From Candidatus Marinacidobacterales bacterium (GTDB lineage Bacteria > Acidobacteriota > Vicinamibacteria > Marinacidobacterales > DATDRI01): 64,000 bases of DNA. Under the pieces are notes generated by a model. It was not told where the DNA came from, made no database searches, and was given only the letters and a program-made list of their open reading frames with translations. The position numbers were made by a program, and so were the translations under genes. The DNA lies in the NCBI GenBank assembly GCA_965226495.1, contig OZ245365.1:1923516-1987515 (forward strand). The letters run 5' to 3'. Positions 7,741 through 50,228 of the stretch are shown piece after piece (the stretch's first letter is position 1; every line of letters begins with the position of its first letter).

Positions 7741-7845
7741 GCAAGGAGAGGGCGAGCACTGTTCGCGAATTATCAAACAGGGAGAAGTGGGCCCGGTCAG
7801 TCCCGAGCGGGAGTGCCGGGCCCGCACTGCAGCAAGGGGTTCACA

Positions 7846-9177
7846 CTAATTTTTCTCCCAAAGCCGCTGCCACCAGCTCCCACCTTCAGGACTCCCCCCG
7901 CGCAGGTTCATCTTCTGGCGGATCTCATTGATGTTCCAACCGGTGATCGATGCCAGCGTCTGAGCCTCTTGCTCCTGCCGCTGTATGACGTTGCGCCGGT
8001 ACTCCTGCGCCACCGGACAGTTGTCACGGCCCTTCCACGGATGACGCAGTACGTAGCGTCCCTGAAAGTTGGTGCGATCGGAGGTTTCCTGGAAGACGAG
8101 GTCTTCGGGAAAGTGCTCGCCGTCGTAGCGAACGTGAAGTCGCGTCACGAAGACTTGCTGCGCCTTTGAGCCGCGTCCCTGGCGTCCGTCCAGCCAGAAA
8201 ACGCCCAGCTCGCGAAGCTCGTCATAAGAGAGAGGGTCCGCCGCACAAGGGTCGCACCAGGCCATGTCCCACGCGTACTCCAAGAACACCGTCCTCATAT
8301 TCTGCTTCCTGACTTGCTCCGCGAACATCGCGCGATAGAAGTCGCCGAACTCGTTCTTGACGAAGACGGGTATCTCCATCCCGGTGGGGAGCTGGGTGGT
8401 GCGGTAGTTGGTGGTCTCCACACGGCCGTTCTTGGTCAGGGCGTAGATGAAGAGCTCTTGCGGACCGTCGGCGTTCACTGTGCCGAGTCGGATGGGAAGC
8501 ATGAACTTCGGGGACTGGTAGGCGACCTGGAGGGGGCGAAGATAGTTGTAACCGAGCTTCGACTGCTCCTCGAGGTTCACCCTGGCCACGAAGAACCTCA
8601 TGTTCTGTTTGATGTAGCTTCCGAGGACGCGCGAAGCACCGGGCGGTAGCTTGTAGCCGTTCTGCTTGAGCCACTTTTCGAGGCCGTTGCTCTGCTCGGC
8701 CGAGAGGATCAAGATGTCGTACTCGGCGACGGTGTATTGGGCTTCGATGGTCACCCCGAGGCTTCGAGCCTCGGCATTCGCCGACTTTCGCAGGCGTCCT
8801 CCCGCTGCGGCCGGTGCCTCCTGGGCCATGTCGTACATACCGTAGCGGCAAGGGTCTTCGTCGAAGTACTCCACCAGTCGCGGCGACGTATAGGCATCCA
8901 GGTGATCGATCAGGGCCTTGTTAGTAACGTGGATCTGCCCGCGCTCGATGAAGGTGGGTACCGGGACGACCACCGCGAACTCCTTTGGGTCGCCCCGAAA
9001 ATCGTTGGCCATGGTGATGACGGTTTTGTCATCGTGTCGGACCAGGACCACCTGCGAGGCTTTGTTGAAGAGCTTCGCGTCGGCCTTGGCCACGTAGAAT
9101 CCGCAAAAGGCTCTCACCGATCCCTGCGAGAATGCCGCCGCCAGGACGAGAGCCGACAAGATCAATAACCGTTTCAT
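7846..9177 (-). CDS. Secreted DUF2330-like protein
   Basis: Signal peptide followed by the AFCGFYVAKAD motif characteristic of DUF2330 as I recall it. Family assignment is from memory. Confidence 0.45.
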   Translation of the reverse strand: MKRLLILSALVLAAAFSQGSVRAFCGFYVAKADAKLFNKASQVVLVRHDDKTVITMANDFRGDPKEFAVVVPVPTFIERGQIHVTNKALIDHLDAYTSPRLVEYFDEDPCRYGMYDMAQEAPAAAGGRLRKSANAEARSLGVTIEAQYTVAEYDILILSAEQSNGLEKWLKQNGYKLPPGASRVLGSYIKQNMRFFVARVNLEEQSKLGYNYLRPLQVAYQSPKFMLPIRLGTVNADGPQELFIYALTKNGRVETTNYRTTQLPTGMEIPVFVKNEFGDFYRAMFAEQVRKQNMRTVFLEYAWDMAWCDPCAADPLSYDELRELGVFWLDGRQGRGSKAQQVFVTRLHVRYDGEHFPEDLVFQETSDRTNFQGRYVLRHPWKGRDNCPVAQEYRRNVIQRQEQEAQTLASITGWNINEIRQKMNLRGGSPEGGSWWQRLWEKN

Positions 9178-10027: not shown

Positions 10028-10263
10028 CCGTACCCTCCCATAGCTCCGTTCGCTATTGGAGGAGGTACTGGCGGGCGGCGGCTTTATTCCCTCGGGTCGA
10101 GGCTATAATCCTTTCTCCGACGGGGGACGCAATGCACATATTTCGCGCACTGAGCAGGCTGATGAGAAACGGGGGAGCCTGCGCGACCGGAGGGAGCCCG
10201 GCGCGACTGCGCGCCGACGAAAGGCCGGCCGTGGGGGTGGGGCCCCGCGGCCTTGGCATCCTA

Positions 10264-10893
10264 ATGATAGCGATTTTGGGAGCAAGTTCGGGCCTGGGAA
10301 GCGCTCAGACCTTGGAAATAGTGCCTTTTTACGGTTGGCAATTCGGCGGCGGGTTTGGTGTCGAAGACGGTCGTGTCGAGGTCAAGGCGGCCCCTGTTTT
10401 CGGGTTCTTGGTGGATGTGCGGGTGCGTCCGGATGCCGCGGTCGAGTTCATCTACAGCCGGCAACAGACGACGCTCGAGCTCAGGAGCACCGACGCCCTT
10501 CGGCCCAGCGCCGAGTTCTTGGACTTGAACGTCGAGTACTTCCAGGCGGGCGGGGTGTACGAGTTCTTGGGCGACGACGCAGAGTTTTTCGACGACGATG
10601 GCGACAAGCCCGCCGTGCGCCCGTTTATTGTACTGACCCTCGGCGCAACGCGGTTCAGCCCGAGCCTGGCTGGCGCAGGGAGCGATTGGCGTTTCTCGCT
10701 GAGCTTCGGTGGCGGCGTCAAAGTGTTTCTCTCCAGGCGGCTGGGCTTTCGCCTCGACGCCCGCGCTTGGCCCACATTTGTAGCGGGTGGTGGTGCCTTC
10801 TTTTGCTCGCTTCCGGGGGGATGCTTGTTTGCCTTTGGCGGCTCGGCATCGTGGCAGGCAAGCGGCACCGCCGGCCTGATCATCGCTTTTTAA
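10264..10893 (+). CDS. Outer-membrane beta-barrel protein (OmpW/porin-like)
   Basis: Signal peptide, alternating amphipathic beta-strand pattern, aromatic C-terminus (..GLIIAF). Confidence 0.4.
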   Translation: MIAILGASSGLGSAQTLEIVPFYGWQFGGGFGVEDGRVEVKAAPVFGFLVDVRVRPDAAVEFIYSRQQTTLELRSTDALRPSAEFLDLNVEYFQAGGVYEFLGDDAEFFDDDGDKPAVRPFIVLTLGATRFSPSLAGAGSDWRFSLSFGGGVKVFLSRRLGFRLDARAWPTFVAGGGAFFCSLPGGCLFAFGGSASWQASGTAGLIIAF

Positions 10894-10945
10894 CCCCTTG
10901 CACAGTTTTGGATCCGACCCCCAGTTGTGGTGCAAGGGTCGGATC
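10894..10945. terminator. GC-rich dyad-symmetry hairpin between the OMP gene and lexA promoter
   Basis: GATCCGACCC..GGGTCGGATC 10-bp perfect arms (plus CCTTGCAC/GTGCAAGG). No following T-run, so this may be a REP-like element or factor-dependent stop rather than an intrinsic terminator. Confidence 0.3.
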
Positions 10946-11009
10946 TAAAAATGTGCACGGTCCACTCACATATGGGGCCGGGAGGTCAAGGGACCCCTAC
11001 ATCTTGCCG

Positions 11010-11038
11010 TTGACCTACACCTAATTTGCACCTATATT
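11010..11038 (+). promoter_or_regulatory. Sigma70-type promoter of the lexA operon (TTGACC-17bp-TATATT). The predicted TSS falls at or next to the lexA ATG, so the mRNA may be leaderless
   Basis: -35 TTGACC 11010-11015, 17-bp spacer, -10 TATATT 11033-11038. lexA ATG at 11045 with no SD sequence. Confidence 0.5.
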
Positions 11039-11044
11039 ACCCCC

Positions 11045-11653
11045 ATGGATTTAACTCAGAAACAACAAGCCGTTTTCGATTACTTGAAGGCTTATCGGGG
11101 CGAGAACGGGCGACCTCCTTCCTATGAGGAAATCCGCGAGGAGTTCGGCTTCGCCTCTTTGAACTCGGTGCGGAAGCATCTGCAACAGCTTGAACGAAAA
11201 GGGTTTATCAAATCGCCCTGGGGGAACCAAAAAAGGGCCCTGGAGATTGTTTCCGACCAGCCGGAAGCGGCCGCCGCCGTTTCATTGCCCCTGCTAGGTA
11301 CGGTCGCGGCCGGTGGGCCTCTCGAAGTCTCAGAGGTTCCCGAGACCATCGATGTCCCTGAAGTTCTTATCGGTCGGGGCGAGCACTTCGCCTTGAAGGT
11401 AACCGGCGACAGCATGGTGGACGACGGCATTCATGAAGACGATTTACTGATCGTGCAGAGGCGAGAGAGTGCCGAGCCCGGCCAGACAGTGGTGGCGCTG
11501 GTTGAAGGCGAAGCCACCGTCAAGCGGTTCTACCGGCACGGGGAGCGAATCGAGCTCCGTCCGGCCAATCCGAATTACTCTCCCCTGATTGTGGGAGAGG
11601 AGGCAGTCCGCATCCGAGGAATCGTCGTCGGGCTGATACGAAAATATGCCTAG
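11045..11653 (+). CDS. lexA: LexA repressor (SOS regulator)
   Basis: N-terminal winged HTH. C-terminal S24 peptidase with cleavage site (VAAGGP), Ser (GDSM) and Lys (TVKRF) catalytic motifs. Confidence 0.9.
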   Translation: MDLTQKQQAVFDYLKAYRGENGRPPSYEEIREEFGFASLNSVRKHLQQLERKGFIKSPWGNQKRALEIVSDQPEAAAAVSLPLLGTVAAGGPLEVSEVPETIDVPEVLIGRGEHFALKVTGDSMVDDGIHEDDLLIVQRRESAEPGQTVVALVEGEATVKRFYRHGERIELRPANPNYSPLIVGEEAVRIRGIVVGLIRKYA

Positions 11654-11876
11654 CAAGAGGACAAGCAAGAAAATGGTCCGGCTCCCCAAGGATCTTTACC
11701 ATCGTCTCGAGAAGGTAGCCGGTCAGCAGGCCCGAGTAAAAGACAACCCATTGGATGATGTGATCCGCGATGCGGTAGAGATCCAATATGGCGAGGGAGG
11801 GCTTACCACGAGGTTGCGAGCTATCGGTGCTTGGCTCGAGTTCAGGCCTCGTCGTCACGTGGTCAAAGAAAGTTAA
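11646..11876 (+). CDS. Small ribbon-helix-helix (CopG/Arc-like) protein, translationally coupled to lexA
   Basis: ATG overlaps the lexA stop by 8 nt. N-terminal VRLPKDLYHRLEKVA..VIRDAV matches the RHH beta-strand/helix pattern (xxVxLPxxLxxxLxxxA...IRxAL). Confidence 0.45.
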   Translation: MPSKRTSKKMVRLPKDLYHRLEKVAGQQARVKDNPLDDVIRDAVEIQYGEGGLTTRLRAIGAWLEFRPRRHVVKES

Positions 11877-11964
11877 TCTTCATTTTTTCTAGTCGCAACT
11901 AGCGTTTTTCTCGGAAACACCCAGTCAATCTAAGGGGAGAAGTGTCTCTAGAGGGAGGTGTCAA

Positions 11965-12816
11965 GTGATTTTCATCGGCACGAGCGGGTACGGTTATCAC
12001 AACTGGTCTCCTAGCTTTTATCCATCGTGGTTGCTTTATGAAGACTACCTAGATTTTTACTCCGAACAATTCAATTGCTGCGAGCTGACATTCACCCGTT
12101 ACCGGATGCCGACCGTGGAGGATCAAGAGAGTTTGCTTCGCCGCTCGGCAGGAAGACTTGTGTTTACCGTGAAGGCGCATCGTCGCCTGACGCATCAACG
12201 TCCACTAGAGACGAAGGACCTGAGCCTGGCCCATCATTTTGCTGCTTCGCTGGCTCCGCTTGTCCAAGCCCGGAAGTTGGGAGCGGTGGTGGCCCAGTTT
12301 CCTTTTTCCTTCATCAATAACCCTGAGCATCGTGCTTACGTCTGTCGACTCCGGGCGGCACTGGATGGGCTTCCGCTGATAACGGAATTTCGTCACGACA
12401 GTTGGTTCGACGAGGAGACGCTCCACTTTCTCCGAGGATGGGATATCGGTGTCGCGTGTGTGGATGTTCCGAAACTAGCCAAGCTTCCCGGTCCTCGTGC
12501 TCTTGTGACCTCCGAGTTGGGCTACGTGCGCTTCCATGGACGCAACGCCTCTCGGTGGTGGAAGTGGTGGGCGCCAAGAAGCAAAGATCAAGGTTACCGC
12601 TACGATTACAATTACCGCCGTCGTGAGCTGATGGGCTGGATACCCCGCTTGCGAGAGATCGAGAAGCAGAGCCAACACACTTTCGTCATCTTCAATAACC
12701 ACTGGCAGGGCCAAGCGGTCATCAATGCTCAGGCGCTTCAGAAGATTCTGAATAAGCGGAACAGTTCGATCGCCACCGCCCGCCAGACGGTCGCTCCTCA
12801 GCTGCTAGCGGGGTAG
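11965..12816 (+). CDS. DUF72 (YecE-like) TIM-barrel protein
   Basis: Characteristic DUF72 N-terminus (IFIGTSGYGYHNWSPSFYP) and length. Confidence 0.8.
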   Translation: MIFIGTSGYGYHNWSPSFYPSWLLYEDYLDFYSEQFNCCELTFTRYRMPTVEDQESLLRRSAGRLVFTVKAHRRLTHQRPLETKDLSLAHHFAASLAPLVQARKLGAVVAQFPFSFINNPEHRAYVCRLRAALDGLPLITEFRHDSWFDEETLHFLRGWDIGVACVDVPKLAKLPGPRALVTSELGYVRFHGRNASRWWKWWAPRSKDQGYRYDYNYRRRELMGWIPRLREIEKQSQHTFVIFNNHWQGQAVINAQALQKILNKRNSSIATARQTVAPQLLAG

Positions 12817-12827
12817 GGGAGACAACC

Positions 12828-13475
12828 GTGGCTCGCCAGAGTTTTGTCACCACCCGTCTCTCTGCCGATAGCAAGTTACGAGTCGTCGCTCCCTGGGGGG
12901 TTCCTCAAATTGCCGGGCGCCTAGTAGAGCTTTCCGGAACCGGAGCGACGGCGACGCTGACCGCGGCTTTCGGGCTGGTGCTCGAGGCGCAATGGAGGGG
13001 CGAGCCCGTCGCCTGGATCACATTGCCGTCGAGCACATTTTTCCCGCCCGATGCTGCGGCGGGTGGTATCGACTTGGATTCCCTCGCGGTCGTTCGTGCC
13101 CGTGATTCTTACACTGCGGCGCGATCGGCGATGCAACTCGTTCGCTCGGGTGGGTTTGGACTCGTGGCGATTGACCTCGGCCCGAAGCCGGCCCCCGCAA
13201 GCATGGGACAAAAGCGCGTCGAATACACGTCCATTCCCACGTCGCTGCTGACGCGTCTAGTCGGACTGGCCAAGAAACACGACACCGCGGTCGTTGTCCT
13301 TACTGAAAAGCCGACCCATGCGAGCTCTCTCGGTTCCCTAGTTTCGCTGAGGGCAGAGGCTCGCCGGCCTCCAGCGGCTCCTTATCGCATCGAGCTCTCG
13401 GTTCTCAAAGACAAAAGACGCGGCCCGGGACAAGTACATCGGGAGACTTGCCGTGGTCCGGCTGGCATGTGTTGA
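12828..13475 (+). CDS. imuA: ImuA (SulA/RecA-fold mutagenesis cassette protein)
   Basis: Position immediately upstream of imuB-dnaE2. Motifs GRLVELSG.GA.ATLTAAFGLV.EAQWRGEPVAWI..VVRAR typical of ImuA. Confidence 0.7.
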   Translation: MARQSFVTTRLSADSKLRVVAPWGVPQIAGRLVELSGTGATATLTAAFGLVLEAQWRGEPVAWITLPSSTFFPPDAAAGGIDLDSLAVVRARDSYTAARSAMQLVRSGGFGLVAIDLGPKPAPASMGQKRVEYTSIPTSLLTRLVGLAKKHDTAVVVLTEKPTHASSLGSLVSLRAEARRPPAAPYRIELSVLKDKRRGPGQVHRETCRGPAGMC

Positions 13476-14940
13476 TGTTCCGGCGTTCCCACTCCAACTC
13501 CTCCTCCGGGAACATCCGGATTGGAAGGAGTTTCCGGTCGCCGTGGTTGCCGAAGATCGACCGAACTCTCCTCTGCTCTGGGTAAACGAGAAGGCTAGGC
13601 GAGCGCGCGTCCTCCCCGGGCAACGTTATGCCCAAGCGTTGTCGCTGTCGTCCGAACTAAGGGCCGGTACCGTTTCCCGTCATGAGATCGAAAAAGGCGT
13701 CGAGCTTCTCACCGATCGACTCCGTCATTTCACGCCGGAGGTGGAGCCGGGGCTCGACACGCCGGGCGTCTTCTGGCTGAATGCCCAAGGACTGGAGCGG
13801 CTCTACAAAAGCCTGGAGGACTGGGCGGGTGCGATCGGCAAAGATCTCCTGAAGGCTGGATTTTTATCCACCGTCGTCGTGGGCTTCACTCGCTTCGGGA
13901 CTTATGCGGTGGCCAAGTCCATCCTAGGAGTGAAGGTCTTCCAGGATGCCGGTGAGGAAAACCGGGTTGCCCGCCGTGTGAAGCTGGATCGTTTGGAGAT
14001 CGAGCCCGCGGTGCGTGACGCCCTGGATAAGCTCGGGGTTCGCACGGTTGCGGGTTTCCTCAAGCTTCCGGCCAAGGGACTCCTGAAGCGATTCGGCGTC
14101 GAAGCGCATCGGTTGTACCGTCTCGCCGCCGGAGATCTCTGGGCCCCTCTTCAACCTCATCCCGCCGTGGAGCCCCTCGAGCGCCAGTTCTTGCTGGATG
14201 CTCCGGACTCCGATTCCGAGCGCTTGTTGTTTCTCGTAAAAAGAATGCTGGACTCGCTTCTGGCGGAGTTGGTGCCGAAAAGCAAAGCGCTGACCGAGGT
14301 CGCGCTTCGCCTGGTTCTCGATCGCGAGGGAGAGTATGGAGAGCGGATTCGCACCGCGGCGCCGACCGTCGACAGCGCGCAGATCCTAGGACTCATCCGA
14401 CTGCGCCTGGAGTCTTTGCGACTCGATTCGGGCGTGGTGGCGCTCCACTTGACCGTTTGTGGAACGAAGGTTCTCCCTGAACAAGATCTTTTGTTCACCG
14501 AGAAACCGCGCCGCGATCTGGAGGCGGGCAGTCGCGCTCTTGCTCGTCTACGGGCAGAGTTTGGGGAGACGGTCGTGGTGCGCGCCCATTTGCAAAATAA
14601 CCATCTTCCTCAGGCGAGCTTCCGATGGGAGCCCATGGAAAAAACAACCATCCCTCATCCTCAAAAAAAGAGCAGTCCTCGTCTTCTGGTGAGAAGAATC
14701 TACGAAAGGCCACTTCTCCTTCCACATCGGTCCCGACACGAGCCCGATGGCTGGCTCTTGCGCGGGCTCGAGCACGGGCCTGTCCAAAAGTTCGTCGGCC
14801 CTTACGTTTTTTCCGGAGGTTGGTGGGCGGGTGGCGTCCACCGCGAGTATTACTTCGTGAACATGCTTCGCGGAGAGGTGCTTTGGGTTTTTTACGATCG
14901 AAAGCGACGTCGCTGGTTTCTGGAAGGACGCGTCGAGTGA
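13453..14940 (+). CDS. imuB: ImuB (catalytically inactive Y-family polymerase homologue)
   Basis: Y-family polymerase-like N-terminus ([17 protein letters not shown]..) and the conserved position between imuA and dnaE2. Overlaps imuA by 23 nt and dnaE2 by 4 nt. Confidence 0.85.
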
Positions 14941-17900
14941 CGTACGTGCCTCTCTGGTGCAAGACCAATGGCTCCTTCCTCGAGGGGGCGAGTCACCCGG
15001 AGGAGCTTGTCGAAGAGGCACAGCGTCTCGGCTTGCGCTCCCTCGCAGTCACCGATCGCGACGGTGTGTATGGCGTGGTGCGCGCCCATGTGAAAGCGAA
15101 AGAGATAGGTGTGCAGCTTCTCATCGGAGCGCAAGTGACGGTTGAGGACGATTCGGTCATTCTATTACTCGCTCAGAATCGTCGGGGTTACGCGAGTCTT
15201 TGCCGCCTCTTGACCGTTGGGCGACTCCGTTCGCCCAAAGGCGAGTCCTCGGTGAGTTGGGGTGAAGTTTACGAGCATCAGGACGGACTCCTTGCTCTTT
15301 GGGGAGGGGAGAGAAGTCTGTTGGTTGGGGAGCCGGATCCGGGGAGGGTTGCCGAGTCCTTACGGGAGGCTTTTGAGGATCGGCTCTACGCGATGGTAGT
15401 ACGACATCGCCGTGACACCGAGGCGCCTCAAGAGGCTCGACTGCGCGAGCGTGCCGTGCGCCACAAGCTTCCTATCGTTGCCGCGGTGGAGGTGCTCTAT
15501 CACACGCCCGAAAGACGGGATCTTCAAGATGTCTTGACCTGCATCCGTTACGGGTTGACGGTGCGGACGGCGGGCCGGCAAACCAAGCCGAACGCCGAGC
15601 ACGCGTTGAGGACGCCTTTTTCTTTCGATCAGCTCTTCGCCGACGATCCCTCGGCGGTGACGAGGACCGAAGAGATCGCGGCGCGTTGTGATTTTTCACT
15701 GGACCAGCTTCGCTACCGTTACCCTGCCGAACGCTTACCGGATGGCACAACCTCTGCGGAATGGCTTTATCGATTAACTATGGAAGGTGCACGTCGTCGT
15801 TATCAGGGCGACGTGCCTTCCAGCGTGCTGAGGCAAGTCGAAAAAGAGCTTCGCGTTATCGAGGAGCTGGATTACTGCGGATATTTCCTGACCATGTATG
15901 AGATCGTGCAATTTTGCCGCGCAAATGAAATTTTGTGTCAGGGCCGTGGCTCGGCTGCGAACTCGGCGGTTTGCTACTGCTTAGGCATCACCGCGGTGGA
16001 CCCGGTACGGATGGGGCTCTTGTTCGAACGCTTCTTGTCGAAAGATCGCAACGAGCCTCCGGACATTGATCTCGACATCATGCATCAGAGAAGGGAAGAG
16101 GTCATCCAATTCGTTTATAACAAGTATGGTCGGGATAAGGCAGCGATGGTGGCGAATATTATCCGTTATCGGGCCCGCTCGGCGGTGCGCGACGTTGGGA
16201 AAGCTCTGGGACTTCCGGAGACCTCTCTCGACCGGCTGGCCAAGGTTCTCTCTCATTACGACGGGGTTTCCTCACAAGCGCTTCGTCATGCAGGCCTCGA
16301 TCCGGAAATCCCGATCAATCAGCACTTGTTGAGACTGACTTACGAGATTCAAGACTTTCCGCGGCATTTGTCGATCCATCCGGGAGGGTTCCTTCTCGGC
16401 CACGAGCCGGTCCATGACATCGTTCCCATTGAGAATGCCACCATGGCCGACCGCACGGTGATCCAGTGGGACAAAGACGATATCGAGTCGCTGGGGCTCT
16501 TCAAAGTGGATCTCCTGGGGCTCGGTGCGCTCACTCAGCTCGACCTTTGCTTTCGCTTGCTGAAGAGACATCGAGGTATCGATCTCTCCATGGCTACTAT
16601 CCGCAAGGACGATCCCGAGACTTTCGACATGATTTGTCGCGCCGAGACAGTGGGCGTCTTCCAGATAGAAAGCCGTGCGCAGATGGCGATGCTGCCCCGC
16701 CTCCGGCCGCGTCATTATTACGACCTCGTCGTCGAGGTGAGTATCGTGCGGCCCGGTCCTATCACGGGAGGGATGGTGCATCCTTATCTTCGCCGGCGGA
16801 ACGGAGAAGAGCCGGTGGAATACCCTCATCCGTCTTTGAAACCGGTGCTCGAGAAGACGCTGGGGGTGCCTCTCTTCCAGGAGCAAGTGATGCGCCTGGC
16901 GGTAGTGGCGGCTGACTACACTCCCGGTGAAGCCGATCAACTGCGACGCGACATGGCGGCGTGGCGACGCACCGGACGCATCGAGAAGCACCGCGAGCGA
17001 CTGATTTCACGAATGCAGGCGAAGGGGATCAAGCCGGAGTTTGCAGAGAGGGTCTTCGAGCAGATCCGGGGTTTCGGCGAATACGGTTTTCCCGAGAGTC
17101 ATGCAGCGAGCTTCGCCTTGGTCGCCTATGCCGCGGCCTATCTTTTGAGACATCATCCGGCCGAGTTCACCTGCGCTCTCCTGAACGCTCAGCCGATGGG
17201 TTTTTATTCGCCGGCAACCATCATCGACGACGCCAAGCGGCGTGGCGTCGAGGTCCGCCCGGTGGATGTTCGTCTGAGCGACTGGGATTGCACGTTGGAG
17301 AAAATTGACCCCCTCACCCCGACCCTCTCCCCACAGGGGAGAGGGAGAAATTCGATTCCGTATGCGGTACGAATGGGACTCCGCTACGTCAAGAGTCTCG
17401 GCGAGAGAGATTGGAAGCGTGTCGACGCCGCTCGTCGCAAACGGATTTTTGTTTCTATCGAAGACTTCGTTCGCCGGACTCGATTGAACGAGGGGGCTCT
17501 CCAAGTTTTATCCGAAGCCGGTGCCTTCGAGGGGTTCGGCAAGGTGAGAAGAGCCGCCCTCTGGGACGTACGCGGTCTGGCTCGCGAGCCTTCACCGACT
17601 CTGCCTCTCGAAAGCACAGAGGAAACTCCGGAGTTTCCGAAGCTCGACGATTTCGAGACCATCGCATGGGATTACCACGCGTCTTCACATAGCACCCGGG
17701 GGCATCCTCTGGGGCCCTTGCGAGAAGCCCTCCGTGCGCAAGGCCTACCGGATGCGGAGACGGTCTCGAAGATGAAGCACGGAAGAAAGATTCGTTACGC
17801 AGGATTGGTGATCTGCCGACAGCGCCCGGGGACTGCCTCCGGCGTCACCTTCATGACCCTAGAAGACGAGACCGGCTTCGTGAATCTCGTAATTTGGACG

Positions 17901-18065
17901 AGAGTCTTCGAACGTTATGCGGTGCTGGTCAAGACAGCATCCTTTCTTGGCGTCACCGGCAAGCTCGAGGCCCGCGACAATGTCGTGCATCTCATCGCCG
18001 ACGAGCTATGGGTGCCCAGTCTCAAAGTGCAACCAGAGCACGGGCGAAGCCGGGATTTTCACTAA
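14937..18065 (+). CDS. dnaE2: Error-prone DNA polymerase DnaE2 (ImuC)
   Basis: PHP domain (SFLEGAS), polymerase III alpha core motifs, OB fold near the C-terminus. Likely start is GTG at 14937; the ORF-track M at 14625 is upstream in-frame read-through. Confidence 0.9.
17311..17350. repeat. Small palindromic (REP-like) element inserted in-frame within dnaE2
   Basis: CCCTCACCCCGACCCTCTCCCCACAGGGGAGAGGGAGAAA, with hairpin CCCTCTCCCC-ACAG-GGGGAGAGGG. Encodes ..[13 protein letters not shown].. in the gene frame and SPHRGEGE in another frame. An inverted copy is at 58936-58975. Confidence 0.6.
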
Positions 18066-18181
18066 ATACTAAATAAGGACTCGTACGACATCGGCGCTGC
18101 CACTCATCAGCCTATTGGGACCGTTGTGGACTCGCAGTATCCGGTTGAATTCTCGAGCCGCCTCGGTTAAACCTTCTGCCT

Positions 18182-18454
18182 ATGCGCGAGGTGCAGGCAG
18201 GCATGAAAGGGATCGTAGGCGCCTGCGTCGCGAGCATTCTGTTGACAGCGACGCTCGCAGCCCAGGAACTGTCCTCCCAATCGCGCCCCGCGGCGACGCA
18301 GCGAGGCGCGCCGCTGTATCGCAATCATTGCGCGCGCTGCCATGGGCTCCAAGGATTGGGTGGTACCGGACCGAGCCTGACTCGGCCGGTTCTGCGCCAC
18401 GCCCGAAGCGATAAGGTGGAGCCCCAGCACGGCAGGAGCCGTGACTTTCACTAG
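18182..18454 (+). pseudogene. Truncated class I c-type cytochrome remnant fused in-frame to a dnaE2-tail copy
   Basis: Signal peptide then CARCHG haem-binding motif and GGTGPSL. Ends after ~85 aa with [11 protein letters not shown], which is the dnaE2 C-terminal motif. Confidence 0.4.
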
Positions 18455-18564
18455 CCGTCGGTCACGGAAATGCGACGCTCCTGCTCATCACGGGGAGCCC
18501 GAAAGCACCTCCCGCAAGAACTCTTTGACACCCTTCCCGCCCGTGAGACGAAGAAGAATAGGGC
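18418..18564. repeat. Direct repeat copy 1 (~145 bp) beginning with a dnaE2 3'-end-like segment
   Basis: Near-identical to 18633-18776, with a 2-bp indel in the tail-like part. Confidence 0.9.
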
Positions 18565-18632
18565 CATCACTCGAAACATCCAGCTCGAACTTTAGGAACG
18601 GACAGCATTGACGTTCGAGGCCGAGATGAACT

Positions 18633-30218: not shown

Positions 30219-30620
30219 ATGACAGAGTCCAGGGACCGTGGGGCCGCGCGGGAGAGCCAAGTTCGTGCGGCACAGTCGGTGGGAGCTCACGTCACCCGTC
30301 GGCACATTTTTTTATGTTCTGATCAGACCAAGCCCAAGTGCAGCGAGAGGGAGCGATCGATCGCCGCCTGGAATTACCTGAAGCAGCGTCTCAAAGAGCT
30401 GGGTCTCTCGGAGCAGGGCGGCATCTTTCGGACCAAGGCCAACTGCCTCCGGGTTTGCGAAGGTGGGCCCATCGCGGTGGTTTATCCCGAAGGCGCTTGG
30501 TACGGCGGGTGCGATCCGCCGGTTCTCGAGCGGATCATCCAAGAGCATTTGGTGAACGGCCAAATCGTTGAAGAGCACGTGATCCTAGCGCGTACTCTCG
30601 AGCCGGGCTCTGGCAGCTAA
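30219..30620 (+). CDS. Thioredoxin-fold [2Fe-2S] ferredoxin-like protein
   Basis: [13 protein letters not shown] ... CLRVCEGGP cysteine pattern. Confidence 0.6.
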
Positions 30621-30629
30621 TGGAAATTC

Positions 30630-31079
30630 CTACTCTCCGATATCCTCGGCCCAAAGATCGGGTTTTTCACGCTGCAAGCGCTCCATAAGGCGGACGCAAC
30701 GGGGGTCGTCTAGGAGCACTAGCTCGATGTCGCTGGTTCGCATCCAGTCCTCGGCGCCCATGAACGTTCGGTTCTCTCCGATGATGACCCGCGGGATCTG
30801 GAAGAGGATGGCGGTACCCGAGCACATGGGGCAGGGGCTGAGCGTGGACACCAGGGTCAGCTGCCTCCAGTCCCGCCTCCTTCCGGCATTCCGGATGCAC
30901 ACGACTTCGGCGTGGGCGGTCGGATCCCCACTTTGGACGCGTTCGTTGTGGCCGCGCGCTACGATTTGGCCGCCCTGGTTCACGAGGACGGAGCCGATCG
31001 GAATGCCTCCCTGCGTCCATGACTCTTCTGCCTGGGCAAGCGCCGCTTCCATCCACTGATGGAACGAGTTCTGATCCAT
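30630..31079 (-). CDS. CMP/dCMP-type zinc deaminase (TadA/guanine-deaminase-like)
   Basis: HAE and PCPMC zinc-binding motifs. Confidence 0.75.
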   Translation of the reverse strand: MDQNSFHQWMEAALAQAEESWTQGGIPIGSVLVNQGGQIVARGHNERVQSGDPTAHAEVVCIRNAGRRRDWRQLTLVSTLSPCPMCSGTAILFQIPRVIIGENRTFMGAEDWMRTSDIELVLLDDPRCVRLMERLQREKPDLWAEDIGE

Positions 31080-31155
31080 GGATGGGGATCATTATTGAAA
31101 GTACTACGTGGGAGCAAACGGCAGGGGACTGCGGGAAGGGAAGGCCTATCCAGGG

Positions 31156-31746
31156 CTAGATCAAATTGGCTTTGGTCAGCGTGTCTTCCACCAACTCGTA
31201 GACGTAGTTGCTAAGTCGACCGCGGCTCCTGTCATCGAAGTTTAGGAACTGAACTCCGGCACCCTCGAGCAGTGTGTCCTTGCGCCCGGCCCCAGGGTTC
31301 TTCCAGGCGACCCGTCCTTCGAGCTCGAGGGGCATCTCCTCTCGAAACGTACAGAACGTGAGACGTAGCCAACTGCCTTCCGGGAAGGGAACCATCGCGT
31401 GGACGTACGCCCCACCGGTGCTGATATCCTGGAGTCGACCCGAGAAGAAATTTAGCGGGGTCTCGCAGAGTACGTCCACCTCCGCAGGCACCCGGAGATA
31501 CTCAATCGGTATCTGATTTCTTAGATCGGAACGCGATGTTTTCTTTCCAGTCCGTTCACTCGCACCGGGTTGGTACAATCCGGAGAAGATGCTGTCCAAG
31601 GTGAAGACGATTTGCTGCCACTCCTTTTCCAGTCTCGGATCGAGCTCTCCGCCTTGGAGGTTTCGCATCTGGAATAGGGTGGAGTATTGCTTGAAAACCT
31701 GAACGATTGGGACGCTCGTCGTGGCCATAATGATCCTTCCTGCCAA
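31156..31746 (-). CDS. PilZ-domain (c-di-GMP binding) protein
   Basis: R-x-x-x-R (RSDLR) and D-x-S-x-GG (QDISTGG) PilZ motifs. Confidence 0.6.
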   Translation of the reverse strand: MAGRIIMATTSVPIVQVFKQYSTLFQMRNLQGGELDPRLEKEWQQIVFTLDSIFSGLYQPGASERTGKKTSRSDLRNQIPIEYLRVPAEVDVLCETPLNFFSGRLQDISTGGAYVHAMVPFPEGSWLRLTFCTFREEMPLELEGRVAWKNPGAGRKDTLLEGAGVQFLNFDDRSRGRLSNYVYELVEDTLTKANLI

Positions 31747-32051
31747 CTTCCAAGTACAAGATCCATTCCACCCTTCTGTTTTGGAGGTGAGACTACCCCT
31801 CGCATCGACAGGAAGTCTTTTGAAATGAGTCTATTAGTTGGTGTGGCCGCGTGTCAGGAAGGTATCGTTCCAACGCCTGGAGTGGTACGGCGACCGGGGT
31901 CACTTTACTCCGATCACATGGGGGTTTCCCCACGCGCGTGTGTGCGATCCCCCGCGAGGGCCGTCTGACGAGGTCTATACTGGCAGTGCGTCTATTGACG
32001 GCGAGAACGGAGTGTAAGCAGCGGCGTGATGGCCTGGATGGCCCGCCCGTT

Positions 32052-33338
32052 TCATTCCTCACGAATTCTAAAACGTCGAGCCTTTAACTCGTATCGCGGC
32101 AAACTCCCGGCCGCGACGGGGCGAACGGTCGCTTGCAGTCCTAGTCGCGTCGCAACTGTCCGAGACAATTCCGTGCACACGGCGTCTTGCCGTGTCTCCG
32201 GCAGCACTTCCACCCGAATTTCCATCTCCAACATCTCACGATGTCGGAACACCTCGACTTCGAACTCTACGATTTCGTTTTGCGTTCTGACCAGCTCTTC
32301 CACTGCACTTGGATACACGTTCATGCCGCGGAGTTGAATCATGTCATCCGCCCGACCTAGGACGGCCCCGGGAAAGAAGACGTAGGGGCTACCGCATTCG
32401 CAAGCATCCTCCCCCAACCGCACGATGTCTCCGGTCCGGTAACGCACCACGGGCATATCCCAGCGGCCGAGATTGGTCAGAACGAGCTCCCCACTTTCAC
32501 CGAGTCCAACCGGGCGGTGGCCGCCGACCTCTAACACTTCTCCGATGAATTCCGATTCCAACAGATGCATACCCGCTCCCGCGGGGCATTCATACCCCCA
32601 TGCGCCAACTTCGGTGGAGCCAGCGTGATCGAACGCACGGGCGCCCCATGCCTCCTCGATCCGCCGTCGGGTCGCGGGGATGCTGGCACCCGGCTCGCCG
32701 GCGTGTATCGTCATCCTGACCGAGTCCGACGAGAGGTCGATTCCGTTTTCCCGTGCCACCTCTGCCAACCGAAGCGCGTAGGTGGGCGTGGAGAGGAGAA
32801 CTGTGGCCCGGCTGTCGCGGATCCAATCAAGGCGTTGCAACGAGCTCTGCGCGCCGCCGGCTACCACCATCGCTCCGAGTTCTTTGGCTGCTTCGAAGCC
32901 GCCCCAGAATCCCATGAACGGACCGAACCCGAAAGCTGCGAAGACGACGTCCTCGCAATCGAGATCGGCGGCTCGGTAGATCTCCCGCCAGCAGCGGATG
33001 AACCACGACCACGTGCGATCTGTGTCGAGCCATTTGAGCTTCCTACCGGTCGTACCAGAAGTTGTGTGGACACGGGTATATCGTGCGAGAGGCGAAGTGA
33101 GATTCGTTCCGTACGGCGGGTGCTCTTCCTGGTCACGGACGAGCTCGTCCTTGGCGGTAAAGGGCAGAGAGAGGATGTCTTCTGCGCTGACCAGAGGTAA
33201 CTTCGTGCTTTCGAGTTTGGCTTCGTAGAAGCGGTTTTGACGTCTCAATCGACCAAGTCCGTCGTTCAACTTGATCAGCTGAAGGCGGGCGAGCGCCTTT
33301 CGTCTCCGTGCTAAGTCGGCGGTGCTCTTCTTTTTCAT
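32052..33338 (-). CDS. Phenylacetate-CoA ligase family adenylating enzyme (PaaK / F390 synthetase-like)
   Basis: TSGTTG AMP-binding motif and PaaK-family length and architecture. Confidence 0.8.
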   Translation of the reverse strand: MKKKSTADLARRRKALARLQLIKLNDGLGRLRRQNRFYEAKLESTKLPLVSAEDILSLPFTAKDELVRDQEEHPPYGTNLTSPLARYTRVHTTSGTTGRKLKWLDTDRTWSWFIRCWREIYRAADLDCEDVVFAAFGFGPFMGFWGGFEAAKELGAMVVAGGAQSSLQRLDWIRDSRATVLLSTPTYALRLAEVARENGIDLSSDSVRMTIHAGEPGASIPATRRRIEEAWGARAFDHAGSTEVGAWGYECPAGAGMHLLESEFIGEVLEVGGHRPVGLGESGELVLTNLGRWDMPVVRYRTGDIVRLGEDACECGSPYVFFPGAVLGRADDMIQLRGMNVYPSAVEELVRTQNEIVEFEVEVFRHREMLEMEIRVEVLPETRQDAVCTELSRTVATRLGLQATVRPVAAGSLPRYELKARRFRIREE

Positions 33339-33431
33339 ATCCGATACCGTGACGGCTATTCCCAGACCAAAGAGTAGATCAAAATGCGGTCGACTTCGAG
33401 GGGCAGCGAGATTCTGATATGCTCTCGGTCG

Positions 33432-34559
33432 ATGAAGCTCGAGGAGCTAAAGACGCCCGCGGCGCTCCTAGATCGAGAGATCGTGGAGCGGAACACGACG
33501 CGCATGGCCGAGCGCGTCCATCGTCTCGGTGCGCGACTCCGACCGCACGTCAAGACACACAAGTGCGTGGAAGTCGCTCGGCTTCAGGTGCGAGGCCATT
33601 TTGGGGGTATCACCGTCTCCACTCTTGCCGAGGCCCGATTCTTTGCCGCCGCGGGTTTCCGAGATCTGACATACGCTTTTCCGGTGCCGCTCTCCCGAAT
33701 CGAGGAGGCGGCCGAGCTCGGTCAGAGTGTCGACAATTTGAATTTGTTAGTGGATCACGAGGCGACATTTCATGAGCTGGAAACTTGCGCAGCGGCAAAA
33801 GAGATTCGCTTCCCGGTGTTCCTAAAGGTTGACTGCGGCTATCACCGCGCCGGCGTGGATCCAGCTCGAGAGGGAAGTATAGCCCTCGCATCCAAGCTGG
33901 CGAGCTCGCCGCATCTCGATTTTCGCGGAATCCTGACTCACGCCGGCCATTCGTACGATTGCCGCAACCGCGACGAGATTCTCACCGTCGCTCGCCAAGA
34001 GCGGGAAGTCACCGCGCACTTCGCAGAGAAGCTTCGCGGGGCAGGCGTCGAGGTCGCGGAAGTGAGTATCGGATCCACTCCAACCATGTCCGTGACCGAC
34101 AGCCTGGAAGGGGTCACCGAGGCTCGCCCGGGAAATTACGCGCTCTATGACGGTTTCCAGGTGGCTATCGGCAGTTGTTCCCGAGAGGACGTGGCCTTCT
34201 CGATCTTGGTTACAGTGGTGGGCGAATACCCGGAGCAGAACAAAGTGGTCATCAACGCGGGGGGCCTCGCGTTCTCCATGGATCCCGGCCCGCATCACGT
34301 AGACCCCGGCTGCGGCTATGGCACGTTCTTCACATCCGACGGTCGACACGCTTTCCCAGAATTGCGGCTGACGTCGATTTCTCAGGAGCATGGGCAGGTT
34401 TGTGGCCTGAAGCCCATCGACTTCAAGAAGATCTCCATTGGTACACAGTTGCGCGTCGTACCGAATCATTCTTGCTTGGCGTCGGCGCTCTACGATCGGT
34501 ACCACGTCGTTCGCGAGAGCGAGGTGGAAGATGAATGGAGACCGGTCCGTGGTTGGTAG
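33432..34559 (+). CDS. Alanine-racemase-fold PLP enzyme of the D-serine dehydratase-like (DSD1) family
   Basis: PHVKTHKC PLP-lysine motif and DSD1-like length. Confidence 0.7.
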   Translation: MKLEELKTPAALLDREIVERNTTRMAERVHRLGARLRPHVKTHKCVEVARLQVRGHFGGITVSTLAEARFFAAAGFRDLTYAFPVPLSRIEEAAELGQSVDNLNLLVDHEATFHELETCAAAKEIRFPVFLKVDCGYHRAGVDPAREGSIALASKLASSPHLDFRGILTHAGHSYDCRNRDEILTVARQEREVTAHFAEKLRGAGVEVAEVSIGSTPTMSVTDSLEGVTEARPGNYALYDGFQVAIGSCSREDVAFSILVTVVGEYPEQNKVVINAGGLAFSMDPGPHHVDPGCGYGTFFTSDGRHAFPELRLTSISQEHGQVCGLKPIDFKKISIGTQLRVVPNHSCLASALYDRYHVVRESEVEDEWRPVRGW

Positions 34560-34569
34560 CGGATAACCC

Positions 34570-34989
34570 GTGGCCGCACACGCTTGCCGCAGCCTGTTTG
34601 TCTACGGGACGCTCAGAAGAGGCGCCCCCAAGGATCTCCGCGAGTTCTTCGAAAACGAGCCGAAGTTCCTAGGCCGAGCGATGTCTCCCGGACGTTTGTA
34701 CGACCTCGGCGAGTATCCCGGCATGCTCGAGCCAGGGAGGGACGAGGATCGAGTGGTCGGGGAGCTCTTCGAGTTGGAGGACGTCGAAACCAGCCTCGCT
34801 TGCCTCGACGACTACGAACACGCCACCTTGGATCACAGTCGTTTGTTCGAGCGGCGCCTCGGGGAAGTACAGTTGGAGGACGGGGCAATGATTGAGGGGG
34901 TTGAGGGGGTCGAGGCCTGGGTCTACTTTTATAAAGGTGAGGTCAGCGATGGGCAGAGAGTCTTATCGGGAGACTATCTCAAACCGTAA
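34570..34989 (+). CDS. Gamma-glutamyl cyclotransferase-like (AIG2/GGCT) protein
   Basis: LFVYGTLRRG N-terminal motif. GTG start. Confidence 0.65.
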   Translation: MAAHACRSLFVYGTLRRGAPKDLREFFENEPKFLGRAMSPGRLYDLGEYPGMLEPGRDEDRVVGELFELEDVETSLACLDDYEHATLDHSRLFERRLGEVQLEDGAMIEGVEGVEAWVYFYKGEVSDGQRVLSGDYLKP

Positions 34990-35941
34990 GCGAAACCGCT
35001 CCGCTCACATCTAAGTTGCCACCGCTCACCAGCGCAACGGTCTTGGCGTCCTTGGGCAACGAGACCTTCCCCGCGAGAAGTGCCGCTACCGTGGCGGCTC
35101 CCGCCGGTTCCGCGACGAGCTTCGCCCTTTCCATGAGCAGCGGGATCGCTTCACGTATCTCTTGGTCAGAGACGGTGACGAGATCATCCACGAGACGATC
35201 GATGCATCGAAAAACCTCGGCATCGGTCCCCTTGGTGGCGAGCCCATCGGCAATCGTGGTCACCCGTTCGAATTGAGTCGCAGACCCTTTCTCGCGACTC
35301 GTCCTCATGTTCGCAGCGCCTTCTGGCTCGACGCCGATGATTCGAACATGGGGCAGCGCCAGCCGTAAAGCCATGGCGATGCCGGAGATGAGGCCACCCC
35401 CTCCGATGGGAATCAGAATCGCCTCGAGGTCCGGAAGGTCTTCGAGGATCTCGGCCGCGATCGTGCCCTGACCCGCCATGATGTGGCGGTCTTTGAAAGG
35501 ATGGACGTAGACTAGGCCTTTCTCCTTTGCGAGCTGGATAGAATGTGCATACGCGTCGTCCCAGAACTTTCCGTGAAGGATCGCTTCCGCGCCGTACTCC
35601 TTGACGGCTCGCACCTTGCTGCGGTTCGCCCCGTCCGGCATCACCACGTAGCCGGGGATCTTCTGGTGAGACGAGACGAACGCGACGGCTTGGCCATGAT
35701 TACCCGCCGAGGCGGTGACGATGCCACGACCCTGCTCGGTAGGAGGGAGATGAAGGACCTTGTTGAAGGCACCACGGACTTTGAAGGAGCCCGTCTTCTG
35801 GAGATTCTCAGCCTTGAGCCAGACGCGAAGCGCGGTCCTCACACTCAGCGAGCGAGAAGACAGCAGCGGTGTGCGATGGACGAGCCCGTCGATCGTGGTC
35901 CTCGCGTCATCGAAGTCTTTTTGGGTAAGCTCGAGATCCAT
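34979..35941 (-). CDS. Threonine/serine dehydratase (PLP fold type II)
   Basis: KAENLQKTGSFKVRGA PLP-lysine motif, 320 aa. Confidence 0.8.
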   Translation of the reverse strand: MDLELTQKDFDDARTTIDGLVHRTPLLSSRSLSVRTALRVWLKAENLQKTGSFKVRGAFNKVLHLPPTEQGRGIVTASAGNHGQAVAFVSSHQKIPGYVVMPDGANRSKVRAVKEYGAEAILHGKFWDDAYAHSIQLAKEKGLVYVHPFKDRHIMAGQGTIAAEILEDLPDLEAILIPIGGGGLISGIAMALRLALPHVRIIGVEPEGAANMRTSREKGSATQFERVTTIADGLATKGTDAEVFRCIDRLVDDLVTVSDQEIREAIPLLMERAKLVAEPAGAATVAALLAGKVSLPKDAKTVALVSGGNLDVSGAVSLTV

Positions 35942-49466: not shown

Positions 49467-50228
49467 ATGATCGAAAGTTTTGGAGTCACCGATATCGGTA
49501 GGCGCCGCCAACTGAACGAAGATGCCATGCTCATCGACGACAAAGCGGGCCTCTACGTTGTCGCCGACGGCATGGGTGGACACAATGCCGGCGAGGTCGC
49601 CTCTCAATTGGCGGTCGAGACAGTCTCCAATTTCGTCGGGCGCTCCGGCCATGACGAAGAGATCACGTGGCCGTATGGAGTGGACCCCGCGATTTCCATC
49701 AACGCGAACCGTCTCCGAACCGCCATCATGCTCGCGAACAAGCGAGTATGGAAAGAGGCTGACAATCGTGAAGACTATACCGGTATGGGGACTACCATCG
49801 TCGGGGGGCTCGCCGAAGACGCGAGTTTGATCCTGTGTGGAGCAGGTGATAGTCGGGCTTACCGATTCCGCGGGGTTGCCCTCGACCAGATTACGGTCGA
49901 TGACTCGTGGGTGCAGGTAGCTTTGAGCGAAGGACTCCTCCAGGCAGAGGAGGCCGAAAACCATCCGATGAAGAACATAATCACCAAAGCGGTAGGGGCA
50001 AAGCAGAACATCGACTTGACCGTACACGAGGAGGTTCTGGAGGACGGAGACCTCTACCTTCTTTGCACCGACGGGCTTCATGGAATGCTGAATCACGCGG
50101 GAATCGTCGAGATTCTGACTGCCAAGAAGGCCAACCTAGAAGAAGCAGTCCAGGGGCTCGTAGCCGCCGCCAACGAGAACGGCGGAAAAGACAACATCAC
50201 CGCAGTCGTGGTTCGCTACAGCAAGTAA
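49467..50228 (+). CDS. PP2C-family Ser/Thr protein phosphatase
   Basis: DIGRRRQLNED..VADGMGGH motifs. Confidence 0.85.
   Translation: MIESFGVTDIGRRRQLNEDAMLIDDKAGLYVVADGMGGHNAGEVASQLAVETVSNFVGRSGHDEEITWPYGVDPAISINANRLRTAIMLANKRVWKEADNREDYTGMGTTIVGGLAEDASLILCGAGDSRAYRFRGVALDQITVDDSWVQVALSEGLLQAEEAENHPMKNIITKAVGAKQNIDLTVHEEVLEDGDLYLLCTDGLHGMLNHAGIVEILTAKKANLEEAVQGLVAAANENGGKDNITAVVVRYSK

Follow-up and report, generated by a model that had tools for sequence, protein, structure and literature searches.

Genes and regulatory sites of the lexA locus

The 64,000-nucleotide (nt) stretch of a Candidatus Marinacidobacterales genome analysed here (contig OZ245365.1; hereafter, the window) carries a string of six genes between positions 11010 and 18065, all on the + strand: lexA, a small open reading frame (ORF2) for a ribbon-helix-helix (RHH)-type protein, a DUF72 gene, and the imuA-like, imuB and dnaE2 genes of a mutagenesis cassette. 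A first-pass annotation of this DNA had proposed that the six genes form one SOS operon and that the DUF72 protein has a role in processing damaged DNA. To our knowledge, DUF72 (YecE in E. coli) is a large family with crystal structures dating from 2004 onward and no demonstrated function. The locus contains the following features.

11010–11038, + strand: sigma-70-type promoter, TTGACC-17 nt-TATATT (promoter scan)
11016–11035, + strand: putative LexA operator, direct repeat TACACC-N5-TGCACCTA (phylogenetic footprint and position weight matrix (PWM) scan)
11045–11653, + strand: lexA, 202 amino acids; TIGR00498, 194 bits against a cut-off of 110.95; Pfam LexA_DNA_bind (PF01726) and Peptidase_S24 (PF00717)
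11646–11876, + strand: ORF2, small RHH-type protein, 76 amino acids, assigned on orthologue evidence
11889–11909, + strand: weak hairpin CTAGT-cgca-ACTAG with a 5-bp stem, followed by T5, in the spacer between ORF2 and DUF72
11965–12816, + strand: DUF72/YecE TIM-barrel protein, 283 amino acids, GTG start; PF01904, 174.6 bits, E 4e-51
12828–13475, + strand: imuA-like RecA-fold protein, 215 amino acids, assigned on weak ImuA/RecA matches and position
13453–14940, + strand: imuB, Y-family polymerase homologue, 495 amino acids; Pfam IMS, 30.9 bits against a cut-off of 23.2
14937–18065, + strand: dnaE2, error-prone C-family polymerase, 1042 amino acids; NF004225, 1375 bits against a cut-off of 939

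Re-reading the sequence gave the same six-gene, same-strand array and the same junction sizes as first described: lexA and ORF2 overlap by 8 nt, imuA and imuB by 23 nt, and imuB and dnaE2 by 4 nt (ATGA), and 11 nt separate DUF72 from imuA. These four values were right, but the list had left out an 88-nt spacer between ORF2 and DUF72 (11877–11964). A Shine-Dalgarno sequence for DUF72, GGGAGG, lies at 11953–11958. The same gene order recurs in related loci (L133 and L082–L089; comparison loci carry L numbers throughout), and the array is hence more than a chance arrangement.

The window LexA passes its family test, with an N-terminal DNA-binding domain, a C-terminal S24 peptidase domain and a score above the TIGR00498 cut-off, and the motifs VAAGGP, GDSM and VKRF can be read from its sequence. 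We take Ala89-Gly90 to be the cleavage site and Ser123/Lys160 to be the catalytic dyad, having placed both by eye against the E. coli pattern. Because cleavage and catalytic residues are both present, the protein is predicted to be competent for self-cleavage. The named database relatives of LexA, DUF72 and ORF2 all come from metagenome-assembled genomes (MAGs) labelled 'Vicinamibacteria bacterium'. On these grounds the window belongs to a Vicinamibacteria-like acidobacterium, taken to be from soil or sediment.

The small gene named as RHH in the first-pass annotation proved to be real and is probably of RHH type. Comparison of ORF2 with its counterparts in the two closest relatives gave a dN/dS of 0.10–0.24, with in-frame indels; four of six orthologues match Pfam RHH_1 (PF01402; best E 4.6e-6), and the NCBI label for one orthologue (P0264) is 'ribbon-helix-helix protein, CopG family'. 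The window copy, which carries a 4-amino-acid loop insertion, has no Pfam match. Its AlphaFold2 monomer is of low confidence (pLDDT 60.7), with helices at 15–30, 35–48 and 52–65 after an extended VRLP segment, to be set against the beta-alpha-alpha layout of RHH proteins. Public gene callers start the protein at an internal Met (11673; P0262); orthologues conserve the upstream start, MPSKR. Homologues also sit between lexA and DUF72 in the distant loci L134, L138 and L146, sharing the core L-Y-x-x-L ... D-(V/L)-(I/L)-R-(D/H)-A-(V/I)-E-I-(Q/H)-(Y/F). The RHH gene has been lost, with DUF72 left intact, from L083–L089, L001, L135/L136 and L145. Small reading frames after lexA in L143 (HicB-like by inspection) and L140 (ferredoxin-like) are not ORF2 homologues. 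For the RHH protein, the most probable role is that of a second DNA-binding regulator, produced in concert with LexA.

The last three genes are read as the established cassette, in which ImuB is a Y-family homologue that lacks the catalytic acidic residues and ImuA is a RecA-fold accessory protein whose gene comes immediately before imuB. The imuA-like product is the least certain member: it scores 24.6 bits with NF033429 (ImuA_translesion) against a cut-off of 150, matches RecA at E 5e-5 to 9e-5, and has no Walker-A GKT, and its position and 23-nt overlap with imuB fit the cassette pattern. The N-terminus of ImuB aligns with E. coli DinB such that Asp8 is kept and DinB Asp10 is replaced by Pro, and the SLDE motif, read by eye, is GLDT; orthologues in the equivalent position are 74–91% identical. 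DnaE2 passes its family test, aligning to NF004225 over residues 2–1042, and has the Pfam domains PHP, DNA_pol3_alpha, finger, HHH_6 and OB. The longest dnaE2 reading frame begins at 14625, and the family model aligns from 14937.

The only clear promoter had been placed upstream of lexA, and a scan of 10700–18600 for sigma-70 consensus sites found that one site and no other. Such matches are expected 1.8 times by chance, so that a single match is within chance; nonetheless, the promoter is credible because its −35, its −10 and the short distance from −10 to ATG are kept in all relatives. The gap from the −10 to the lexA ATG is 6 nt, with no Shine-Dalgarno sequence. Given this short spacing and the missing Shine-Dalgarno sequence, the lexA mRNA is likely to be leaderless.

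Aligning the lexA upstream regions revealed an operator-like direct repeat with the consensus TAYACC-N7-CACCTA and a period of 11 bp, which in the window reads TACACCTAATTTGCACCTAT at 11016–11035. The repeat occupies the whole −35/−10 spacer, overlaps the −10, and is kept 5′ of lexA in all Vicinamibacteria-like loci. A PWM built from eight such sites and run over both strands of 301 kb scored 25–32.5 bits at lexA promoters only, once per locus, including three loci outside the training set (L140, L141 and L142); it found no operator-like site before DUF72 or imuA. The next best match (15.4 bits, window position 50053) lies inside a PP2C phosphatase gene and was taken as chance. From this footprint we infer that LexA may bind the direct repeat. 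As the cassette has no operator of its own, its control would therefore come by read-through from the lexA promoter.

A single lexA-to-dnaE2 transcript is plausible, but the 88-nt spacer before DUF72, with its small hairpin, keeps us from calling it more than that. The terminator scan did not call the hairpin at 11889–11909, and the 88-nt spacer folds no better than shuffled sequences (z = +0.65), so neither a riboswitch nor a terminator is claimed. The hairpin, non-canonical as a terminator, may act as an attenuator or a processing site. In the clade whose DUF72 proteins are about 80% identical, a short hairpin of other sequence and with no T run is found at the equivalent position. Rfam gave no match within the operon. 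Upstream of it, between an OMP-like reading frame (10132–10893) and the lexA promoter, lies a long imperfect inverted repeat (10884–10969) with a sub-threshold match to an Rfam microRNA family and nothing stronger. The core of the repeat, GGATCCGACCCC, is also found 5′ of lexA in L133, and the repeat may be an REP-like (repetitive extragenic palindromic) element or may terminate the gene before it.

History of the locus

A DUF2330 gene and an RnfD/NqrB-like gene precede lexA in the window and in all relatives examined. Because this upstream pair is shared by all of them, the window lexA is the resident chromosomal copy rather than a second copy carried in with the cassette.

Relatives differ in what follows lexA. 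In those with the full array, DUF72 is 77–93% identical to the window protein (93% in L133 and 79–91% in L082–L089), and the ones with DUF72 at about 80% identity lack the RHH gene. At the equivalent syntenic site, more distant relatives have lexA-(RHH)-DUF72 without imuA-imuB-dnaE2: L134, L135/L136 and L138/L139 (DUF72 50–51% identical), as well as L146–L148 (51%) and L145 (59%). Downstream of DUF72, these cassette-free loci encode a NicO-like membrane protein, a 130-amino-acid ferredoxin-like protein or both, and then DUF2461, a deaminase, PilZ and more genes. The following downstream neighbours are still present in the window, as found by tblastn with the proteins of L146 (57–68% identity, order kept):

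30258–35920, strand not assigned: ancestral downstream neighbours, namely 130-amino-acid ferredoxin-like, deaminase, PilZ, AMP-binding, Ala-racemase-like and PALP genes

About 17.4 kb now separates DUF72 from these old neighbours, and the intervening stretch opens exactly with imuA-imuB-dnaE2. The rest, about 12 kb between dnaE2 and the old neighbours, holds genes for MerR, sulfatases, DUF5916, an M15 peptidase and arginine decarboxylase. A check of the 12 kb after dnaE2 for mobile elements found no integrase, transposase or tRNA, which leaves the term genomic island unsupported; the data allow us to speak of a lineage-specific rearrangement or insertion and no more. Since distant relatives lack the cassette and the ancestral neighbours have been displaced, lexA-RHH-DUF72 is the older module; the cassette joined it from behind in one sub-lineage, and the module has eroded in some others. 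The expectation that DUF72 would be conserved directly upstream of imuA thus holds within the clade whose DUF72 proteins are at least 77% identical and fails beyond it. DUF72 is not primarily a partner of imuA; its older and wider linkage is lexA-(RHH)-DUF72.

Several individual loci depart from these patterns. In L141 (7826–9117), the DUF72 gene beside lexA is interrupted, with the N-terminal 30 codons at 7826 and the remainder from near 8518, reflecting either a pseudogene or an assembly problem. L001 (8957–11522) has a tandem duplication of the lexA promoter, the operator and the first 74 lexA codons, and an uncalled imuA homologue (70% identical) after DUF72; neither imuB nor dnaE2 is found within 10 kb, insertion sequence (IS) elements flank the region, and the cassette appears to be partly lost. 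L143 (7001–14627) lacks DUF72, and the operator matrix found no site in it. There, a long run of co-directional genes starts with that for a more distant LexA (58% identical) and continues with a HicB-like 81-amino-acid reading frame and genes for DUF3224, a cupin, a glyoxalase and a Zn-ribbon protein, followed by a short gene on the opposite strand, a 266-amino-acid reading frame, imuB and dnaE2. Finally, a Cys-rich ferredoxin-like protein of about 130 amino acids (CCDQTKPKCC) is encoded co-directionally after DUF72 in L134, L135, L137, L138, L141 and L146. Its window copy is at 30258–30602, and the family may have been part of the ancestral lexA operon.

DUF72: gene context, structure and predicted activity

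Distant DUF72 genes were sampled as 80 loci among the matches listed by a scan of a genome collection with a DUF72 alignment. The sampled proteins are 37–46% identical, and the loci are mostly from Chloroflexota. Six of the 80, spanning four other phyla, have lexA or a translesion or DnaE polymerase within 1.3 kb of DUF72:

L033 and L041, Atribacterota: lexA-DUF72-dnaE-dinB, with 19–20 nt between lexA and DUF72 and AACATATGTT-type LexA boxes upstream
L021, Bacillota: dnaE-DUF72-UDG4 (family-4 uracil-DNA glycosylase)
L067, Bacillota: polY-x-DUF72, with lexA 3 kb away
L026, Spirochaetota: DUF72-polY-dnaE2-like
L069, Chloroflexota: DUF72 1 kb from a convergent imuB-dnaE2 pair

The nearest such gene is within 3.5 kb of DUF72 in all six loci, and the flank beyond 3.5 kb, 56% of that sampled, added only more members of those clusters and one UDG4 match, in L067. 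By a rough estimate rather than a formal test, about 0.3 loci would be expected by chance, if a genome of 3000 genes has about 5 of this kind and about 200 genes were sampled within 1.3 kb. In L021 (4475–5874), DUF72 lies directly after dnaE and overlaps the UDG4 gene by 4 nt, a base-excision-repair type of DUF72 association in a Bacillota MAG. The immediate neighbours across the 80 listed loci include YebC (8), FtsK (8), Hsp70 (4), epimerases (4) and UvrD (3). With neighbours otherwise so diverse, the link between DUF72 and DNA damage is recurrent, not general.

The DNA-damage connection first suggested for DUF72 is therefore supported, both by the conserved linkage to lexA and by its recurrence in other phyla. 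Independently, DUF72 has been found enriched near polB2 together with lexA (PMC11791011). Literature searches gave no relevant paper for DUF72 with imuA, and for yecE with SOS none that links YecE to the SOS response.

What the protein does is a separate question. The window DUF72 passes its family test, with a full-length PF01904 match above the gathering score and a TIM-barrel fold. The first-pass annotation had invoked a closeness of DUF72 to endonuclease IV, and this stands at the level of the superfold but not as closest fold, sequence similarity or specificity for nucleases. Structure comparison scored MbnB/DUF692 at 15.8, xylose-isomerase-like sugar isomerases and epimerases at 13.4–14.5, and Nfo-type apurinic/apyrimidinic (AP) endonucleases at 12.0–13.3. 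In Foldseek, epimerases and MbnB rank after the DUF72 entries, and neither endonuclease IV nor UVDE is among the top 50. Alignment of the DUF72 profile to E. coli Nfo with hhalign gave a probability of 1.2% over 27 columns, out of register, and a profile search of the PDB, run to E 10, gave no match to Nfo. DUF72 has been stated to be closely related in structure to UVDE (PMC11791011).

Twelve residues of DUF72 are invariant (E40, K70, H77, R79, Q111, E141, R143, D167, R189, R193, N244 and N245), and H191 and H246 are nearly so. Endonuclease IV has a trinuclear metal site of nine residues, comprising five His, two Asp and two Glu. Compared with that site, the DUF72 set has too few His and many Arg and Lys, and ligands for a trinuclear Zn centre are not evident. 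The crystals published for DUF72 proteins are free of active-site metals (PMC3828134), and any DUF72 chemistry would therefore differ from that of endonuclease IV. The Thermotoga maritima protein Tm1631 has been modelled as a DNA-binding endonuclease that makes contacts through K72, H79, Q114, R145 and R191 (PMC3828134), and the corresponding residues here, K70, H77, Q111, R143 and R189, are all invariant. Taking these contacts together with the gene context, we infer that DUF72 could have nuclease activity.

Two segments set the window protein apart from other members of the family. A clade-specific Trp-rich insertion, WWKWWAPRSKDQG, encoded at 12556–12594 (residues ~198–210), is absent from most DUF72 proteins and is modelled with lower confidence. 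At 12730–12816, a basic C-terminal tail ends in QLLAG, QLLAS or QLRAG in all DUF72 proteins linked to imuABC (L133, L082–L089 and L001), and the C-termini differ in cassette-free loci. The tail faintly resembles the motifs QLxLF or QLxLxL by which proteins bind the beta-clamp; this may point to clamp binding or, alternatively, to shared ancestry only.

Proposed mechanism, alternatives and comparison with known systems

The reading we favour, and consider moderately probable, is that a resident, LexA-autoregulated lexA-RHH-DUF72 operon had imuA-imuB-dnaE2 placed 11 nt behind it and that DUF72 acts on damaged DNA. LexA would occupy the direct-repeat operator across the −35/−10 spacer and so repress the single promoter. 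RecA-stimulated cleavage of LexA, freeing promoters, is established LexA biology; upon DNA damage, self-cleavage at Ala89-Gly90 by Ser123/Lys160 would free the promoter here. A leaderless polycistronic mRNA could then be made, in which overlapping or abutting frames would couple the translation of LexA with the RHH protein and of DUF72 with ImuA, ImuB and DnaE2, and the dose of the downstream genes may be lowered by the small spacer hairpin. Error-prone bypass by ImuA-ImuB-DnaE2 is established for the cassette elsewhere, and the three proteins would carry out error-prone lesion bypass here. DUF72 is envisaged as a TIM-barrel enzyme that binds phosphate and whose Lys/Arg/His/Glu/Asp pocket is invariant. 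To judge from its context and from published modelling, it might, for example, incise at or trim around lesions or gaps alongside the damage-tolerance polymerases. A bolder version, which we advance tentatively as a possibility, is that DUF72/YecE constitutes a widespread, hitherto unrecognised class of damage-inducible lesion-processing enzymes that act beside damage-tolerance polymerases (ImuABC, DnaE, Pol IV, PolB2), that in Vicinamibacteria-like Acidobacteriota DUF72 and the LexA-coupled RHH protein make up the core lexA operon, and that the QLLAG tail might dock DUF72 onto the mutasome, for example through the beta-clamp.

Several observations weigh against this reading. The operator is a phylogenetic footprint only, and neither the window nor the compared loci contain a second SOS gene, such as recA or uvrA, that would confirm it. 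The 88-nt spacer is partly conserved and could hide an internal promoter, and it holds the weak hairpin and T run. L140 has lexA alone, without DUF72, and L142 has lexA with a degenerate RHH gene and IS elements, DUF72 having been lost. Most DUF72 genes do not adjoin repair genes, their neighbours being diverse. The structure does not single out a nuclease, since MbnB/DUF692 and sugar epimerases score above endonuclease IV and there is no profile similarity to Nfo. Finally, no biochemical activity for any DUF72 protein was found in the literature searched.

The spacer lends itself to a different view of transcription, in which there are at least two units, lexA-RHH being autoregulated and DUF72-imuABC being transcribed from an unrecognised spacer promoter that may be controlled by the RHH protein or be independent of damage. 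Consistent with this, the hairpin and T5 come directly after ORF2, the ~60 nt 5′ of DUF72 are partly kept across sub-clades, including those without the RHH gene, and our promoter scan was confined to the sigma-70 consensus. However, the spacer contains neither promoter-like hexamers nor an operator-like site, its hairpin is weak, and its fold is no better than that of shuffles. The gap between lexA and DUF72 is 103–137 nt in the RHH-less sub-clades and just 19–20 nt in Atribacterota. Moreover, imuABC cassettes are typically under LexA control (PMC4951493, PMC6511836), and the only operator-like site here is at the lexA promoter. We regard separate units as rather unlikely, if the strongest of the alternatives.

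The diverse neighbourhoods and the fold comparison would also suit a passenger DUF72 whose function has nothing to do with DNA, lying for example in sugar or phosphate-ester metabolism like that of the characterised TIM barrels nearest in structure, and whose adjacency to lexA is inherited synteny of no functional significance. Its closest non-DUF72 folds are indeed MbnB/DUF692 and ketose epimerases, most DUF72 neighbourhoods are unrelated to repair, and the gene has disappeared from the lexA site in L140 and L142. Nevertheless, a tight, co-directional lexA-DUF72 pair persists down to 50% DUF72 identity, and DUF72 has independently joined lexA, dnaE, dinB, polY and UDG4 genes in four other phyla, in keeping with the separate report of DUF72 near polB2 (PMC11791011). 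The cassette, too, went in 11 nt after DUF72 and not after lexA. A passenger role therefore seems unlikely to us.

A third possibility is that DUF72 sanitizes the nucleotide pool, or small phosphorylated products of damage, and so aids translesion synthesis indirectly. The invariant Lys/Arg-rich pocket would suit phosphate, a phosphate site has been described (PMC3828134), and MazG neighbours DUF72 in one sampled locus. The published modelling, in contrast, favours a DNA groove (PMC3828134), and the partners UDG4, UvrD and FtsK all act on DNA, which makes sanitation improbable. The idea of a LexA-controlled toxin-antitoxin-like pair, with the RHH protein as antitoxin and DUF72 as nuclease toxin, draws on the RHH gene lying directly 5′ of DUF72 and on a weak match of one RHH orthologue to Antitox_RHH (E 0.003–0.004), but we reject it as very improbable given that DUF72 is retained intact in all the loci that have lost the RHH gene (which would be lethal for a toxin), that the broadly distributed DUF72 family usually has no RHH neighbour, and that the RHH gene is coupled to lexA by the 8-nt overlap and lies 88 nt from DUF72.

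A resident lexA-RHH-DUF72 operon with an acquired cassette has several implications. The conserved place of DUF72 in the lexA operon gives the family a concrete hypothesis, a link to DNA damage that can be tested, and the independent joinings to lexA or to translesion or DnaE polymerases in five phyla support building on it. The locus also suggests how a mobile mutagenesis cassette that lacks an operator can come under presumed SOS control, namely through placement downstream of a resident operon governed by LexA. We found no published description of the SOS system in this clade, for which our analysis supplies candidates for both a LexA operator and an RHH co-regulator coupled to LexA.

The array is a variant of the known lexA-imuABC arrangement. 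According to a passage in PMC4951493 (citing Erill et al. 2006), lexA-imuA-imuB-dnaE2 arrangements are prevalent in Bacteria, with Opitutus terrae as an example. As in those operons, lexA heads a co-directional string that ends with the genes of the mutasome, the putative operator lies within the lexA promoter, and the gene content points to the shared function of damage-inducible error-prone bypass. Unlike them, the window has the RHH and DUF72 genes between lexA and imuA, and its lexA is the resident syntenic copy in a lexA-RHH-DUF72 module that predates the cassette. The window operator, TAYACC-N7-CACCTA, is unlike the motifs listed in PMC4951493; its architecture, a tetranucleotide repeat with an 11-bp period, resembles the alphaproteobacterial LexA box GTTC-N7-GTTC given there, although the bases differ. 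Geobacter sulfurreducens lexA-imuB-C-polY similarly places translesion synthesis genes behind lexA in what is, in that species, one damage-inducible unit, but with other polymerase modules and no DUF72 or RHH gene reported (PMC6511836).

A DNA-damage role for DUF72 is not a wholly new idea, as an endonuclease was predicted in 2013 (PMC3828134) and DUF72 was noted near polB2 and lexA in 2025 (PMC11791011). The earlier prediction was computational and concerned the crystal structure of Tm1631 (PDB 1VPQ; PMC3828134, PMC4939058). Relative to Tm1631, the 'two-tyrosine' motif Tyr47-Tyr48 is replaced by Arg45-Tyr46 in the window protein and Ser10 by Gly10, and DUF72 proteins of the window clade have in addition the insertion WWKWWAPRSKDQG and the basic tail ending in QLLAG. 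With endonuclease IV (Nfo), the likeness is confined to the xylose-isomerase-like superfold, with no sequence or profile similarity. The closest parallel in context comes from PolB2 neighbourhoods, which are enriched in lexA, SRAP and DUF72 and likewise set DUF72 beside a multi-subunit translesion synthesis system and lexA, the components being B-family PolB2, iRadA and PPB2 there and C-family DnaE2, ImuB and ImuA here. That study suggests in passing that DUF72 is tied to the DNA-damage response, without an analysis of operons or ancestry (PMC11791011). To these precedents, the present locus adds that DUF72 and the RHH gene are older partners of lexA in this clade, that the cassette landed behind them, and that DUF72 has repeatedly made such joinings in unrelated phyla.

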